Notes: generated by a model from the letters alone, not told the origin. A stretch of 64,000 nt of DNA from an uncultured Alphaproteobacteria bacterium (GCA_944391705.1 CALXUN010000004.1:13126-77125); one strand, 5' to 3'; numbered from the stretch's first letter, positions 4,590 to 18,810 are shown. A program made the numbers and translations.

Positions 4590-5303
4590 ATGACTGCACC
4601 AATTTCAGGCTTTCCGGCTCTGGGAAGCAAAGCACCGGCTTTTTATGCCATCACCACGAACGGCACCATTAATTTCCCCGAAGATTTTAAGGGAAAATGG
4701 GTCATTTTATTTTCGCATCCGGCTGATTTTACGCCGGCATGCACCACCGAAATTGCGACATTTGCCGCCATGCAGGAAGATTTCAAAGCCCTAAATACCG
4801 AACTTATCGGTCTTTCGGTAGACAGTAATTCCTCACACCTGGCCTGGTTAAAAGAAATTGAGGAAAAAATTTCTTTTCATAACTATAACGGGCAGAAAAT
4901 AAATTTCCCTCTAATTGCCGATAACAAAGGCGATATTGCCGCTTTATACGGCATGTTCCGTCCGGAACTGGGCGATACCAAAACCTGCCGTTCAGTATTT
5001 TTTATTGATCCGGACAGTACCATCCGTGCCATGATACATTATCCGGCCACCACCGGCCGGAATTTTGCCGAAATTAAGCGGGTTATAGAAGCTTTGCAGA
5101 CGACAGACGCTTACGGGATATCCACCCCGGCCGACTGGCAGCCGGGAGATGACGTTCTTTTATCGGCCCCCAAAACACACCAGCAGGTACATGAAAGAGA
5201 ACAAAAAATGCCTGATATGCAATGCAGTGACTGGTTTTTCTGCACCCAGAAATACGAAAACTTAAAAGATAAGACAAACCGGAAAGCTACTTTTTCCCGA
5301 TAA
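4590..5303 (+). CDS. Peroxiredoxin (1-Cys/Prx6-like) with C-terminal extension
   Basis: FTPACTTE peroxidatic-Cys motif and AhpC/TSA fold signature; 237 aa. Confidence 0.8.
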   Translation: MTAPISGFPALGSKAPAFYAITTNGTINFPEDFKGKWVILFSHPADFTPACTTEIATFAAMQEDFKALNTELIGLSVDSNSSHLAWLKEIEEKISFHNYNGQKINFPLIADNKGDIAALYGMFRPELGDTKTCRSVFFIDPDSTIRAMIHYPATTGRNFAEIKRVIEALQTTDAYGISTPADWQPGDDVLLSAPKTHQQVHEREQKMPDMQCSDWFFCTQKYENLKDKTNRKATFSR

Positions 5304-5985
5304 TACCGGCAACAAAATCAAGTTCTTCCGGCAAAATCTGGTGGTCAAGCGTATTAAAAACTTTTACGGCTACCGGAATATTTTCCTGTTGCAGCCATTT
5401 TTTGGTATAGTCCAGGCATTTAAACAAAACCGTCTGGTCTTTTTTGCCATGCAGCAAATAAACTGTCGGCCGCGAAACAATTTGAAGATCCAGATGTTCA
5501 TCAGCTGCCGCAAGCCCGGAAAACGAAAAGCAGCCGGCCAGTTCCTGCATTCTGATTAAAGCCGTCCAAATTGCCAGCATTGCCCCTTGTGAAAAACCGG
5601 CAATATAAGTATTTTTGTCACGGAAACCATATTTTTTTTGCATATCGTCAATAAAAAAATTTATATCCATTGCCGTTTCAAAAAGTTTTTGCCCGGCCTG
5701 ATTATAAATTTTTGCGATTTCTTCAACCGGTGTTTCTTCAAGCCGGCGCTTGTTTTCCGCATCAAAACCGGAAACCTTATACCAGCTTTTGCGGGCCGGA
5801 TCTTTTTGTGATACATTTCCTCCTTCCGGTGCGGCTATGGCCAGACCCGGAAGTTTTTGCTGCAAATACTCATATACCGGACGCATTTCATCACGGGTAT
5901 TATTATAGCCGTGTAAAAATACCAGCAAAGACGAAGCCGGTTTTTGACTTGGAAAATACTGACTTTCAAAAACTGACAAAACCAA
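5287..5985 (-). CDS. Phospholipase/carboxylesterase family alpha/beta hydrolase
   Basis: 232 aa with a GFSQGA nucleophile elbow and an FLHGxN oxyanion region. Confidence 0.7.
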   Translation of the reverse strand: MVLSVFESQYFPSQKPASSLLVFLHGYNNTRDEMRPVYEYLQQKLPGLAIAAPEGGNVSQKDPARKSWYKVSGFDAENKRRLEETPVEEIAKIYNQAGQKLFETAMDINFFIDDMQKKYGFRDKNTYIAGFSQGAMLAIWTALIRMQELAGCFSFSGLAAADEHLDLQIVSRPTVYLLHGKKDQTVLFKCLDYTKKWLQQENIPVAVKVFNTLDHQILPEELDFVAGIIGKK

Positions 5986-6474: not shown

Positions 6475-6551
6475 GGGCGCTTAGCTCAGTTGGTTAGAGC
6501 CGGCCGCTCATAACGGTCTGGTCGTTGGTTCGAGTCCATCAGCGCCCACCA
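6475..6551 (+). tRNA. tRNA with CAT anticodon (elongator Met or lysidine-Ile2; close to E. coli ileX-like pattern)
   Basis: Hand-folded cloverleaf: acceptor gggcgct/agcgccc, anticodon loop ctCATaa, T-loop ttcgagt, discriminator A, encoded CCA. Confidence 0.8.
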
Positions 6552-9450: not shown

Positions 9451-10605
9451 ATGAAACAACATCTGATAGCTTTGGTTGATTGCGATTCTTTTTTTGTATC
9501 CTGCGAACGGGTAGACAATCCTGCCCTTTGCGGAAAACCTGTCTGCGTCATGACCGGCGGCGGCAGCAAAGGAATTATTGTTTCCCGCTCTAAAGAAGCC
9601 AAAGCTTTGGGCATTAAAATGGGAGCACCGTATTTTCAAGTACAAAAAACGCACCCGCAGGCGATATGCCTGCCGGCACGCCACCGTCGTTACAGCGAAA
9701 TTTCACATCAGGTCATGAACACGCTTAGAAGCTTTACGCCGGATGTCGAAGAAGTTTCAATCGATGAAGCTTATGTTGATTTAACCGGGTTAGATGCCGT
9801 TTATAAAATTTCATATCAGGAATTAATTAAAAAAATCCGGCAAACCGTATGGCAAAAAAACAAAATACCGGTTTCCGTTGGTTTAAGCACATCAAAAACT
9901 TTGGCCAAACTGGCCAGCGATAAAGCCAAATCTGCCGGCGGAATTTATATCATCCGGCCGGAAGAAATATTAGAAAGCATCGGTAATGATAATATAAATG
10001 AAATTTGCGGCATCGGCCGTTGTAACAGCCAAAACCTCGGGTTTAACGGTATTTTTACCGTCAAGGATTTTTTAGCTCAGGATAATGCCTGGATAAAAAT
10101 GGCCTTAGGCATTCGCGGTCTTAATTTAAAATTCGAATTATCCGGATTGGCTGTTTCACCGGTTGACACCACCTTGCAGGCACCACAATCCATACAAGAT
10201 ACAAAATCGTTTACGGATTTTTCCGATAATTTAGAATTTTTACAGGCCGAGCTCGGAATTCATGCCCATAATGCCGCCCAAAAATTAAGACACTGGAACG
10301 GATTTTGTGCCGAAGTCGGCGTTTTGTTGCGTACCAAAGATTTCAAAACATCTATACTTTTTACCAAACTTCCGGCAACAAATTCCGATTTTGCCATAAA
10401 AACCGCCGCAACAGAATTATTAAAACACCTTTACAAAACCAAAACGCTTTATCGCAGCATCGGAATAGAACTAAGAAAATTATCATATAATGAAACCCAG
10501 CAATCTTTATTTAAAAACTTACGCCGCGAAGATGACAAGCTTTCTAAAGTTGTTGATGAGCTTGAGCAAAAATTCGGCCGCGGCATTGTCAAAATCGGCG
10601 CTTAA
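9451..10605 (+). CDS. dinB: DNA polymerase IV (Y-family)
   Basis: 384 aa. N-terminal ALVDCDSFFVSCE catalytic motif; SIDEAY second acidic motif. Confidence 0.85.
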   Translation: MKQHLIALVDCDSFFVSCERVDNPALCGKPVCVMTGGGSKGIIVSRSKEAKALGIKMGAPYFQVQKTHPQAICLPARHRRYSEISHQVMNTLRSFTPDVEEVSIDEAYVDLTGLDAVYKISYQELIKKIRQTVWQKNKIPVSVGLSTSKTLAKLASDKAKSAGGIYIIRPEEILESIGNDNINEICGIGRCNSQNLGFNGIFTVKDFLAQDNAWIKMALGIRGLNLKFELSGLAVSPVDTTLQAPQSIQDTKSFTDFSDNLEFLQAELGIHAHNAAQKLRHWNGFCAEVGVLLRTKDFKTSILFTKLPATNSDFAIKTAATELLKHLYKTKTLYRSIGIELRKLSYNETQQSLFKNLRREDDKLSKVVDELEQKFGRGIVKIGA

Positions 10606-10671
10606 AAATTTGACAGGTTTGAAATTTCAGATTACTATCTGCTGATAATATGTCATTTAAGGGAAAAGATT

Positions 10672-11115
10672 ATGAAAGAAGCCAGTTTATCCATTATTGA
10701 AGATACAAAAAATCACAAATTTTTGATGATTCGCCACCACCGCGGCATCAACAAAGGGTGTATCAACTTTCCGGGCGGTAAACGTGAAAACGGTGAAAGT
10801 ATGGAAGACTGCGTCCGGCGTGAAACCTTGGAAGAAACAGGCTTAACAATCTTAAATCCGGTCAAAGTCGGTTATGTTGAGTTCCCGCGTTTTGATTATT
10901 ATGTACATATATACAAAAGCACAAAATTTAGCGGCGAAGTCCATGCCAAACAAGACGAGGTTGAAACTTTTTGGCAGGATGCTTCTAAAATCCCCTATGA
11001 ACAAATGCGTGCGGCCGACCGTGATTTTCTGCCCGACGTCTTAGCCGGTATCCCGGTCAACCGCCGCTACATCTATGATGATGATTTTAAATTACTGGAT
11101 GTCATAAATTTATAA
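10672..11115 (+). CDS. NUDIX hydrolase (MutT-like)
   Basis: Nudix box GGKxExGESxEDCxxRETxEETG. Confidence 0.8.
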   Translation: MKEASLSIIEDTKNHKFLMIRHHRGINKGCINFPGGKRENGESMEDCVRRETLEETGLTILNPVKVGYVEFPRFDYYVHIYKSTKFSGEVHAKQDEVETFWQDASKIPYEQMRAADRDFLPDVLAGIPVNRRYIYDDDFKLLDVINL

Positions 11116-11166
11116 ACTTCATTAAAAAAAGCTTGTTTTCCACATACAAACATGATATAAAGACAA

Positions 11167-11370
11167 GTGTTTAATAATTATTTTTATATGAAAAAGATTG
11201 AAATAATATGCCTTAGTATGGCTGCAGTTGCCATTATCCTGTTTTGGGTATTTGGCTTTAACGGAAAAATGAACTTAGCGCAGGTTTCATTGATTGTTGC
11301 CGGTGGTAGTTGTTGGTTTGTATTAATTTCCTACTTTATCAACTGGCTGCGCAACCGATGGCTTGTTTAA
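11167..11370 (+). CDS. Small membrane protein (67 aa, two TM segments)
   Basis: Hydrophobic ORF followed by a strong terminator (acagcccttcaaacaaagggctgtttttt at 11381..11415). Confidence 0.4.
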   Translation: MFNNYFYMKKIEIICLSMAAVAIILFWVFGFNGKMNLAQVSLIVAGGSCWFVLISYFINWLRNRWLV

Positions 11371-11537
11371 CGCACCATCAAAAAAACAGCCCTTCAAACA
11401 AAGGGCTGTTTTTTACACCCAAACAACGCCATGTTCTTCAAAGTAAAACATTGTGATTTTTTCCCTTAAAAGTTGACATTTGAATAAATGGTTTTATACT
11501 TAAATTAATTTTCACACTCACATATAAGGAAAACACA

Positions 11538-11975
11538 ATGACGATTAAAAAAATCATACTGATTTCAAGTTTATGTCTGACCATTCTTCCATTAACATCT
11601 GTGCAGGCCCGCAACATTCGTTACGGCTATAATGCACAAGGCGATTATGTTCCGGTTAAAATTGACGGCCGGCGTGTCCGCTACGGCTATAATGCACAAG
11701 GCGATTATGTCGCCAAATCAATCGGCGATGATAACATCAGATACGGCTATAATGCACAAGGCGATTATGTACCGGTTGAAATCAACGGCCGACGCATCCG
11801 CTACGGCTACAATGCACAAGGTGATTATGTCATTAAATCAATCGGCGATGATAACATCGGTTATGGTTACAATGCACAAGGCGATTATGTCATTAAATCA
11901 ATCGGTGATAATAACATCGGTTATGGTTACAATGCGAAAGGCGATTTTGTTCCCACTTCCTTTGGCAGGTTTTAA
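11538..11975 (+). CDS. Secreted repeat protein, 6 x 20-aa RYGYNAQGDYV-containing repeats
   Basis: AAGGAAA RBS, a 24-aa signal peptide, then six tandem 20-aa units alternating between two subtypes; terminator downstream. Confidence 0.65.
   Translation: MTIKKIILISSLCLTILPLTSVQARNIRYGYNAQGDYVPVKIDGRRVRYGYNAQGDYVAKSIGDDNIRYGYNAQGDYVPVEINGRRIRYGYNAQGDYVIKSIGDDNIGYGYNAQGDYVIKSIGDNNIGYGYNAKGDFVPTSFGRF
11619..11972 (+). repeat. Tandem repeat, 60-bp period x ~6 (higher-order 120-bp A/B alternation), coding
   Basis: Units share near-identical stretches such as ctacggctataatgcacaaggcgattatgt. Confidence 0.85.
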
Positions 11976-12027
11976 GACAAATGACTGAATACGAAAAAGC
12001 CCGTCCTTAAAAGGACGGGCTTTACTT

Positions 12028-12046
12028 TGGCTCCGACTATCTGATT
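12028..12046 (-). repeat. Orphan 19-nt copy of the tRNA-Asn 3' end (att-like direct repeat)
   Basis: tggctccgactatctgatt is identical to 12275..12293 (3' acceptor/T-stem of tRNA-Asn) and follows a terminator. Confidence 0.7.
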
Positions 12047-12274
12047 GGGTACTCCCGCCGGAAAACTGATTTTTTTAATTTGTATATCCTGCAACGGCGG
12101 GTCCTCCTCGCGTCGTAAGGTTCAAACGTCGCATTTCGCCAAGCGATTTGCTAGGCTCAACGCTCGTTTTCACCAACTTCCCGCTCCGAACAGATGACCA
12201 TCGGTCATCTGTTCAAATCAGTTCCGAACGCACATGCAAAAAGCCCATCCTTTTTCAAGGATGGGCTTTATTTT
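12047..12274. repeat. 230-bp remnant segment between tRNA-Asn and its 3'-end duplicate; contains a GC-rich insert-family sequence and a 28-bp palindrome
   Basis: GC-rich stretch 12047..12180; palindrome gaacagatgaccatcggtcatctgttc (12188..12214) built from T-arm sequence; second terminator 12240..12270. Confidence 0.55.
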
Positions 12275-12349
12275 TGGCTCCGACTATCTGATTCGAACAG
12301 ATGACCGATCGGTTAACAGCCGATTGCTCTACCGCTGAGCTAAGTCGGA
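12275..12349 (-). tRNA. tRNA-Asn (GTT)
   Basis: Hand-folded cloverleaf: acceptor tccgact/agtcgga, D arm tagctcagcggtagagc, anticodon loop ctGTTaa, T-loop ttcgaat, discriminator G, CCA encoded. Confidence 0.8.
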
Positions 12350-12355
12350 ATAATC

Positions 12356-12430
12356 TGGAGGCCGGTACCGGAATCGAACCGATATAAAAGGATTTGCAGT
12401 CCTCTGCATAAGCCATTCTGCCAACCGGCC
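12356..12430 (-). tRNA. tRNA-Cys (GCA)
   Basis: Acceptor ggccggt/accggcc, anticodon loop ctGCAaa, T-loop ttcgatt, discriminator U (typical of Cys), CCA encoded. Confidence 0.8.
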
Positions 12431-16504: not shown

Positions 16505-16581
16505 CGGATTGTAGTTCAGCCTGGTAGAACGCTTCGTTCGGGTCGAAGAGGTCGCTGGTTCGAGTCCAGTCAATCCGACCA
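16505..16581 (+). tRNA. tRNA-Pro (CGG)
   Basis: Acceptor cggattg/caatccg, anticodon loop ttCGGgt with G37, T-loop ttcgagt, discriminator A, CCA encoded. Confidence 0.8.
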
Positions 16582-18273: not shown

Positions 18274-18364
18274 CCTTTCGCTGGTAGTCGAACCGTCTTG
18301 CCGACGGTTCAAATCCGGGCCCCGACATTAAAAAAGAGGCCGCTTCCGGCTGGCCTCTTTTTGG
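18274..18364 (+). repeat. 91-bp direct repeat copy 2
   Basis: See copy 1; its 3' end overlaps the 3' end of the minus-strand tRNA-Pro(TGG). Confidence 0.7.
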
Positions 18365-18438
18365 TCGGGACAGGCGGATTCGAACCGTCGGCATCTTGCT
18401 CCCAAAGCAAGCGCTCTACCAGGCTGAGCTATGTCCCG
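18362..18438 (-). tRNA. tRNA-Pro (TGG)
   Basis: Acceptor cgggaca/tgtcccg, anticodon loop ttTGGga, T-loop ttcgaat, discriminator A, CCA encoded. Confidence 0.8.
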
Positions 18439-18733: not shown

Positions 18734-18810
18734 TGGTCGGGACGAGAGGATTCGAACCTCCGACTTCTTGCACCCCATGCAAGCGCTCTACCAGGCTGAA
18801 CTACGTCCCG
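18734..18810 (-). tRNA. tRNA-Pro (GGG)
   Basis: Acceptor cgggacg/cgtcccg, anticodon loop atGGGgt, T-loop ttcgaat, discriminator A, CCA encoded. Confidence 0.8.

Follow-up and report, generated by a model that had tools for sequence, protein, structure and literature searches.

A conserved family of exported mini-proteins built from six units that resemble YD/Rhs hairpins

The gene and its product

The subject of this account is a small gene at 11538..11975 on the plus strand of a 64,000-nucleotide (nt) stretch of DNA from an uncultured Alphaproteobacteria bacterium (GCA_944391705.1, CALXUN010000004.1:13126-77125); the whole of this stretch is referred to as the window, and positions are counted from its first letter. 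The gene is a real open reading frame (ORF) of 145 amino acids (aa) plus a stop codon, and its product belongs to a family of Sec-exported six-hairpin mini-proteins that is real, conserved and not previously characterised. A preliminary description of the locus had proposed that a signal peptide is followed by a mature protein consisting wholly of six 20-aa units; the ORF, the alignment of the units and Tandem Repeats Finder bear this out. The parts of the gene are as follows (A, B and C designate types of linker following the unit core; dN/dS is the ratio of nonsynonymous to synonymous substitution rates).

11538..11975, plus strand: coding sequence, with a 97% identical orthologue at locus L001 and 48-69% identical six-unit orthologues in gut metagenome-assembled genomes (MAGs) and metagenomes; dN/dS is 0.12 relative to L001
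11538..11609, plus strand: signal peptide, residues 1-24 (MTIKKIILISSLCLTILPLTSVQA), with n-, h- and c-regions of the Sec/signal peptidase I (SPase I) type
11616..11675, plus strand: unit 1 (IRYGYNAQGDYVPVKIDGRR), with a type A linker; the position-specific linker is kept across species
11676..11735, plus strand: unit 2, with the type B linker AKSIGDDN; 92% nt identity to unit 4
11736..11795, plus strand: unit 3, with the type A linker PVEINGRR; a copy of unit 1 (85% nt identity), the period-120 repeat having 88% matches
11796..11855, plus strand: unit 4, with the type B linker IKSIGDDN; its sequence combines parts of units 2 and 5 as a mosaic
11856..11915, plus strand: unit 5, with the type B linker IKSIGDNN
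11916..11972, plus strand: unit 6 (IGYGYNAKGDFVPTSFGRF), 19 aa; the protein end falls at the inter-unit turn position

The putative signal peptide has a basic n-region (MTIKK), a hydrophobic h-region (IILISSLCLTILPLT) and an AxA-type site (SVQA, then RN), with SPase I cleavage predicted after VQA. Conservation of the -1 alanine is at least 90% among 28 orthologues, there is no lipobox, and the confidence of the AlphaFold model (the predicted local distance difference test, pLDDT) is 53-58 across this segment. These features point to export of the repeat protein by the Sec/SPase I route; cleavage would leave a mature protein of ~121 aa made solely of six β-hairpins, probably of the YD type (see below).

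The mature part begins with RN, after which the six units follow one another at an exact spacing of 20 aa (60 nt), with the pattern [IV]-x-Y-G-Y-N-A-x-G-D-Y-V-P-x-x-[IV]-G-x-x-x in the window. Tandem Repeats Finder reports a period of 60 (4.5 copies, 82% matches, score 313) and a period of 120 (2.2 copies, 88% matches, score 419); the periodicity is far above chance. The array is less uniform than the preliminary description had made it: the core RYGYNAQGDYV is exact in four of the six units, the other two reading GYGYNAQGDYV and GYGYNAKGDFV; what had been taken for strict A/B alternation is a linker order of A-B-A-B-B-C; and the nucleotide identity between units, said to be very high, is an uneven 56-92% (mean 73%), with high identity confined to the unit pairs 2-4 (92%), 4-5 (88%), 1-3 (85%) and 2-5 (83%). 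Where two units share an amino acid the codon is identical in 128 of 193 cases, as against 86 expected from the codon usage of the window, and for units 2 and 4 this rises to 17 of 19, as against 8.7 expected; unit 6 shares synonymous codons with the others at about the level expected from genome codon usage. Unit 4 is the sole unit of the window that lies nearest to another window unit and not to its own L001 orthologue. The longest exact internal repeat of the gene is 29 nt.

The gene is flanked by the following signals.

11387..11414, plus strand: probable terminator of an upstream 67-aa ORF, a hairpin (CAGCCCTT-caaaca-AAGGGCTG) followed by T6, read directly from the sequence
11473..11500, plus strand: sigma-70-type promoter (TTGACA, 16-nt spacer, TATACT; 11 of 12 matches), 38 nt upstream of the ATG
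11526..11530, plus strand: ribosome-binding site AAGGA, separated by 7 nt from the ATG, read directly from the sequence
11996..12023, no strand assigned (minus strand in the scan): a 12-bp hairpin rich in G+C, 21 nt past the stop codon; the plus-strand T-run is weak (CTTTACTTTGG)

The hairpin at 11387..11414, which is absent from the output of a consensus terminator scan, is the probable left boundary of the transcription unit of the repeat gene, and the hairpin at 11996..12023 is likely to be a bidirectional terminator common to the repeat gene and the convergent tRNA genes. Many homologues have TTGAC(A/T/G)-16/17-TAxxxT sites 45-65 nt upstream of the start, and promoter-like sites with at least 10 of 12 matches are found at 35 of 81 family loci, compared with 20 of 252 random positions; hairpins of the terminator kind downstream of the gene show no enrichment, being present at 21 of 81 loci and 58 of 252 random positions. 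The repeat gene looks like a transcription unit in itself, served by a near-consensus promoter of its own.

Other-frame and antisense ORFs that overlap the gene (11632-11988, plus strand; 11592-11699 and 11718-11819, minus strand) were considered as genes and rejected as by-products of repetitive DNA. Such ORFs, including a 118-aa repeat that begins MHKAIM, recur at L001, L018, L028 and other homologous loci, but only because the DNA is repetitive.

A family of fixed layout and concerted units

The search of other genomes for the repeat that the preliminary description had recommended is productive: a scan of one genome per species recovers 33 relatives, and scans of metagenomic and viral sequence add 77 further loci. 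All but one of the genomic relatives are in MAGs or uncultured isolates (from human, roe deer, yak, rabbit and rumen samples), labelled either as uncultured Alphaproteobacteria (G+C content 37-46%) or as Candidatus Gastranaerophilales (29-38%). L001 is of the window's species (the repeat proteins are 97% identical, RpiB and GlyA 98-99%); no further strain of that species turned up in the metagenome scan, in which the best match has 65% identity. Protein databases are sparsely populated with this family. A word-indexed search retrieves a single relative and a profile search is needed to recover more; an exhaustive HMMER search of 1.84 billion protein representatives yields 176 proteins at E <= 1e-3, and neither the exact window protein nor its MAG orthologues were found in a collection of 15 billion proteins. 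A literature search on the motif, DUF7422, PF24197 and PF21786 found nothing relevant.

Altogether 73 distinct six-unit proteins from gut and rumen MAGs and metagenomes, with 48-97% identity and always with 20-aa spacing, provide 365 units with the consensus [IV]-x-Y-G-Y-N-A-x-G-[DN]-Y-V-P-[TK]-[SK]-[IV]-G-x-x-x, in which Y3, G4, Y5, N6, G9 and Y11 are each at least 98% conserved. The conserved positions are structural in character (Tyr, Gly, Asn, Pro, Val/Ile), the variable ones are all polar, and the linker is the most variable part of the unit. The 28 orthologues align without a gap across all six units, with little or no variation at Y, G, Y, N, G and Y of each. Among 94 complete ORFs, 75 have six units; three units are found in 8, four in 5, two in 4, and five and eight in 1 each, the spacing being exactly 20 aa throughout. 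Across five close pairs dN/dS is 0.07-0.12 (0.12 for the window and L001), and the gene is under strong purifying selection. The wide sharing of the six-unit layout, together with these dN/dS values, marks the layout as old and selected. The recent expansion proposed in the preliminary description is not upheld: six units are common to all 73 proteins, down to ~48% identity, and in some lineages the units of a gene are no more alike than units taken from different species.

The likeness of interior units within a gene is maintained by recombination. Units of the same gene have an identity of 0.73 (from 0.61 in L009 to 0.94 in L008), as against 0.66 for units at the same position in other genes. 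Close relatives retain positional orthology unit by unit; in a nearest-neighbour test from which relatives above 80% identity were excluded, 65 of 112 interior units (2-5) lie closest to a unit of their own gene and 8 to the corresponding unit of another gene, and unit 1 retains positional orthology in 16 of 28 genes. These sequence comparisons indicate that interior units evolve in concert through intragenic gene conversion or unequal recombination, and gene conversion is apparent even between the window and L001, where L001 has the greater similarity within the unit pairs 1-3 and 2-4.

The same recombination process appears occasionally to remove or add whole units in frame in relatives, as three comparisons indicate: L035 has three units and L018 six, with flanks 99.6-99.8% identical; L036 has four and L025 eight, with flanks 99.4-99.7% identical; and L114-L117, from four samples, have three and L108 six, with flanks about 96-99.9% identical. 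Error in short-read assembly is not fully excludable for these pairs. For L035 and L018, the absence of the junction k-mers from the six-unit sequence and a longest internal exact repeat of 33 nt make simple assembly collapse unlikely, whereas L025 contains a 161-nt exact repeat, so that collapse stays possible for the L036/L025 pair. The copy-number variability by recombination that the preliminary description anticipated is therefore seen in pairs of relatives (6 and 3, 8 and 4, 6 and 3 units) but not between the window and L001, both with six units; these are the two genomes on which within-species copy number rests.

Larger relatives carry the array, in two to six units, at the C-terminus of exported proteins (P0085, P0089 and P0096, of ~400 aa; P0057, P0062, P0070 and P0071; P0074-P0079). 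Signal peptides are present in all, and the N-terminal parts are helical or TPR-like domains (which precede the arrays of P0085, P0089 and P0096) or contain a conserved GLYDDI motif. Some other members bear a C-terminal LFPNYNxKTKKW tail. Neither the N-terminal regions nor these tails have a Pfam match. P0137 (373 aa) is an exported protein with six copies of a variant of the unit with a 17-aa period (RYEYANGEYRISSIGGQ), followed by an unrelated C-terminal region.

The unit and its predicted fold

The preliminary description had recognised no family for the unit. This holds insofar as the window protein stays below curated cut-offs, but by profile the unit is probably a YD/Rhs-type β-hairpin. 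The sequence signal is consistent: the nearest known relatives appear to be the YD/Rhs repeats (PF05593, TIGR01643) of Rhs toxins, Tc toxin B/C subunits and teneurins. The window protein matches Rhs shells among PDB sequences with E = 2e-6; the eight best matches of the family profile in the PDB are Rhs, teneurin-like and Tre23 proteins (best E = 2.5e-10), and the profile is in register with Rhs shells over ~5 units. Four orthologues exceed the RHS_repeat cut-off (L032, 44.2 bits; L013, 31.9; L027, 25.3; L021, 23.3). The distant tail of the 176 HMMER matches consists of long proteins, of which five were sampled; RHS_repeat is present in all four that have Pfam matches, and two of the sampled proteins also carry DUF6531 and TEN_YD-shell. 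The sole match in a search of plasmids is an RHS core protein.

The likeness lies in a ~20-aa β-hairpin unit, in consecutive hairpins forming one antiparallel sheet, in profile matches that are significant in both directions, and in a shared hairpin tip, aromatic-x-aromatic-[DN]-x-x-G, which reads YGYNAQG in the window and YxYDxxG in YD/Rhs repeats. Relative to the YD/Rhs motif YxYDxxGRL(I/T), with its period of ~20-22 aa, the window unit (Y-G-Y-N-A-x-G-D-Y-V, exactly 20 aa) keeps both tyrosines and the glycine, has N for D and Y for L, and replaces (R)L(I/T) with Tyr-Val-Pro. The architectures differ greatly: Rhs, Tc and teneurin shells have dozens of repeats in more than 1000 aa, whereas the window protein has six in ~120 aa, stands alone with a Sec signal for export, and lacks the Rhs core (PxxxxDPxGL), a plug, a toxin domain and DUF6531.

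Other family matches are less informative. DUF7422 (PF24197) is the most frequent weak Pfam match (19 of 28 orthologues, best E = 6.6e-8; 22.8 bits for the window protein, against a cut-off of 27). It always covers one unit (profile positions ~21-48 of 69), none of ~20 members checked individually attains the 27-bit cut-off (the best being L027 with 26.5), and as a family without known function it adds nothing. Weak one-unit matches summed over identical repeats account for the Pfam scores of UvrB, Epiplasmin, DUF4236 and Peptidase_S37, which were discarded as artefacts. The choline-binding or cell-wall repeats of Gram-positive bacteria (CW_binding_1) are 20-aa units of a hairpin and a long loop that stack into a solenoid. 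They resemble the present unit in being aromatic-rich hairpins with a [DN]xxG-like turn, arranged in C-terminal arrays of exported proteins with an anchoring or binding role; they differ in that the window protein has no Pfam match to them at E <= 10 and is predicted to be a continuous meander, not a solenoid.

An AlphaFold2 model based on an alignment of 55 database proteins has a mean pLDDT of 87, exceeding 90 in the mature part, and a predicted template-modelling score (pTM) of 0.68; the single-sequence prediction is poor (pLDDT 42). In the 55-sequence model the mature protein is predicted to be an antiparallel meander of hairpins with 12 regular strands, two per unit and 5-7 residues each, connected by a 5-residue N-A-Q-G-D turn and a 2-residue G-x turn. 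The strand register suggests that I1, Y3, Y5, Y11 and P13 face one side of the sheet, with G4, V12, I16 and variable polar residues on the other, which would place conserved hydrophobic residues on both faces. The presence of exactly six units, the absence of N- and C-terminal caps and the existence of three-unit as well as six-unit variants suggest a closed pseudo-six-fold arrangement, which the high pLDDT of the terminal units and the strong preference of the family for six units also fit. Foldseek finds no match to the model at E <= 1e-3 in the PDB or BFVD. The best template-modelling score (TM-score) overall, 0.38, is with an unnamed BFVD entry; the WD40 propellers that head the Foldseek list (TM ~0.2) were set aside as a local β-meander resemblance.

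Carriage, surroundings and possible function

No gene other than those shared with L001 recurs beside the family loci when neighbours are compared by BLAST clustering and Pfam: 100 flanking genes represent 143 different Pfam families, of which the commonest, glycosyltransferase family 2, occurs 4 times. This lack of a conserved neighbour argues against a system for ribosomally synthesized and post-translationally modified peptides (RiPPs), a curli-type system or dedicated secretion. Most loci are flanked by ordinary housekeeping genes without phage genes, and the window has no phage genes around the ORF. Six IMG/VR viral contigs do carry homologues, which are listed here with those of related loci; a search of 50,697 GenBank phage records found no match.

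L108 2441-2944, L109 5001-5414, L110 about 5006-5306, L112 about 5001-5255, and L114-L117: phage or prophage homologues with 3, 4 or 6 units

In L109, L110 and L112 the repeat gene is on the same strand as, and just downstream of, a repressor gene (XRE-type in L109; CI/LexA-like S24 in L110 and L112), with a terminase large subunit (L109) and portal or head-tail-adaptor genes further downstream; in L108 and L114-L117 it lies between a lambda-type portal and an S49 prohead protease. To judge by these gene orders, the phage-borne copies behave like morons, in two different positions, and carriage of this kind would explain both the missing synteny and the spread across two phyla. Bor and lom of phage lambda are morons. 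The likeness to them is that of an autonomous small gene for an exported envelope protein, with its own promoter and placed between conserved phage genes or beside the repressor; the sequences are unrelated, and most copies of the present family, including that of the window, are in ordinary chromosomal contexts.

The DNA downstream of the repeat gene contains a perfect 21-nt direct repeat (TTTGGCTCCGACTATCTGATT) at 12026-12046 and 12273-12293, the second copy being the 3' end of a tRNA-Asn gene (minus strand, 12275-12349). A similar G+C hairpin precedes each copy (11996-12023 and 12240-12269), and part of tRNA-Asn recurs, as a 78% copy, at 12173-12199. The duplicated tRNA-Asn 3' end directly downstream of the repeat gene looks like an integration or excision scar. 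The region is rich in tRNA genes: three tRNA-Pro genes (CGG, TGG and GGG, at 16505-16581, 18362-18438 and 18734-18810) lie within 2.3 kilobases (kb) on both strands, and there is a tRNA-Met at 6475 and an Asn-Cys pair at 12275-12430. Upstream, the comparison of window positions 9451-11370 with L001 7179-9825 is one of mosaic divergence: RpiB (99% identity), GlyA (98%), a glycosyltransferase (97%) and the repeat protein (97%) are nearly the same, a DinB-like polymerase (77%) and the 67-aa membrane ORF (72%) are not, and L001 has ~750 bp of extra sequence between a Nudix gene and the small ORF. From this pattern, the DNA immediately upstream of the repeat gene may be a block that is variable or has recombined.

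The explanation that we favour is that the protein reproduces in miniature, and free-standing, the hairpin repeat from which Rhs, Tc and teneurin shells are built, with a unit number that selection holds at six and interior units that gene conversion keeps alike. As an account of anatomy and evolution taken jointly this is moderately probable; that it serves as a binding or structural module of the envelope or the extracellular space is much less secure in any specific form. Among the alternatives for the fold, the β-flower proteins (PF21784-PF21786; Durairaj et al. 2023, PMC10584680) come closest. These are small bacterial proteins, often exported, of only four to six hairpin petals; they have four-, five- and six-fold forms, half flowers, [DNEQ]xxG hairpin tips and no PDB match, and the barrel formed by their petals is shallow and symmetric, with a hydrophobic channel, loops of ~9 aa on one side and ~4 aa on the other, short strands and an enclosed hydrophobic helix (PMC10584680). 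A six-fold flower of the Tubby clan (Bflower_3, PF21786) closing into a shallow 12-strand barrel, with a channel that might hold a lipid or other hydrophobic ligand at the membrane, would accommodate a nearly full-length alignment (protein residues 19-122 to profile positions 13-116 of 125, E = 0.0018), the NAQG tip in a 5-residue turn, the ~20-aa period, 12 strands arranged as six hairpins, exactly six units without caps, variants of three, four, five and six units, the half-flower type among them, and the lack of a Foldseek match in the PDB. The score of 18.6 bits is far from the gathering cut-off of 34, however, with only 2 of 28 orthologues reaching E < 0.01 and none of 82 database relatives containing PF21784-6; the predicted loops of 5 and 2 residues and strands of 5-7 differ from 9 and 4 with short strands; the mature protein has no enclosed helix; and the similarity to YD/Rhs repeats is much stronger. 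We regard the β-flower as unlikely. A secreted functional amyloid or matrix subunit of the curli kind, with each unit as a strand-turn-strand of a fibre, would be in keeping with a small Sec-exported protein of imperfect ~20-aa strand-turn-strand units rich in Tyr, Gly, Asn and Gln, with conserved hydrophobic residues on both faces of the predicted strands, but it is very improbable in the face of a confident monomeric meander, no match to a curli repeat family (for the window protein and 28 orthologues) and no nucleator or secretion-channel genes near any locus. The preliminary description had suggested the precursor of a repeated peptide; in the form of a protein cleaved to give a 20-aa peptide six times over (a multicore RiPP or signalling-peptide precursor), this idea draws on near-identical cores behind a leader-like N-terminus; it fares worst and is extremely improbable, as the leader is a classical Sec signal, an all-β folded domain is predicted with pLDDT above 90, the linkers are the most variable positions and contain no conserved cleavage motifs, and no modifying enzyme, protease or transporter is conserved beside the gene.

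Alternatives that concern what the gene does for its host are judged by its distribution and variation. It could be a prophage-derived moron, a lysogenic-conversion or superinfection-exclusion factor that masks or alters a phage receptor and whose chromosomal copies have been domesticated. The repressor-adjacent and portal/S49-protease positions in the six IMG/VR contigs, the gene's own promoter, the absence of conserved neighbours, the spread over two gut-sharing phyla of differing G+C content (29-38% and 37-46%) and the duplicated tRNA-Asn 3' end beside the window gene all speak for it; the housekeeping surroundings of most loci, the window's among them, and the empty search of GenBank phages make it unlikely as an explanation of the family. 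A phase- or antigenically variable surface adhesin, with a unit number that shifts rapidly by slipped-strand mispairing, had been advanced in the preliminary description. In-frame differences in unit number between near-identical genomes (L018/L035, L025/L036, L108/L114-117) and intragenic gene conversion that is ongoing even between the window and L001 are what it would expect, but six units prevail in 75 of 94 complete genes and in both genomes of the window's species, the dN/dS of 0.07-0.12 leaves no sign of diversifying selection, a homopolymer or simple-repeat tract able to switch the frame is absent (with a unit of 60 nt, changes are of whole units in frame), the longest exact internal repeat of the window gene is only 29 nt, and there is no anchor or adhesin domain; this proposal is quite improbable. 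A bolder synthesis would make the family an undescribed class of free-standing YD mini-proteins, each a pseudo-six-fold barrel of 12 strands, filled with tyrosines and closed by six hairpins or by two chains of three, that lacks a solved analogue and is a structural bridge from the Rhs YD repeats to the β-flower/Tubby clan; temperate phages would carry the genes between Alphaproteobacteria and Gastranaerophilales of the gut, where they would be expressed in lysogeny as envelope factors, receptor masks for example. This synthesis is about as doubtful as the moron.

Several considerations also count against the favoured reading of a free-standing YD-hairpin array. The window protein itself scores 16.2 bits with RHS_repeat (PF05593; cut-off 22) and 11.1 bits with TIGR01643 (cut-off 15.8), and since summed scores are inflated on near-identical repeats, as the spurious UvrB and Epiplasmin matches demonstrate, the significance of hidden Markov model (HMM) matches needs to be discounted. 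The alignment beneath the AlphaFold model is thin over units 4-6, and the model does not superpose on an Rhs shell (the best TM-score in the PDB is 0.29, with RhsA). A binding or structural function is reached by exclusion.

With these reservations, the following may be proposed for the YD-hairpin array. It would act outside the cytoplasm, in the periplasm or at the surface of a diderm cell, as a binding or structural module, a role suggested by the lack both of catalytic-looking residues and of partner genes. Its tyrosine-rich sheet would probably bind a repetitive polymer of the envelope or extracellular space, or associate with itself, and the surface adhesion or carbohydrate binding raised in the preliminary description may still apply; the placement of the array at the C-terminus, behind helical domains, in the larger relatives is usual for anchoring repeats.

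YD repeats are known only from very large toxin shells and teneurins; an exported protein of six hairpins and ~120 residues is a minimal and tractable version of them, with a six-hairpin fold that lacks a solved analogue. The gene is also a clean natural example of a selected unit number combined with gene-converted interior units. The family is rare and, where the source is labelled, mostly from the gut and rumen, in uncultured Alphaproteobacteria, Gastranaerophilales and their prophages; it may therefore mark an envelope function that is specific to that habitat.

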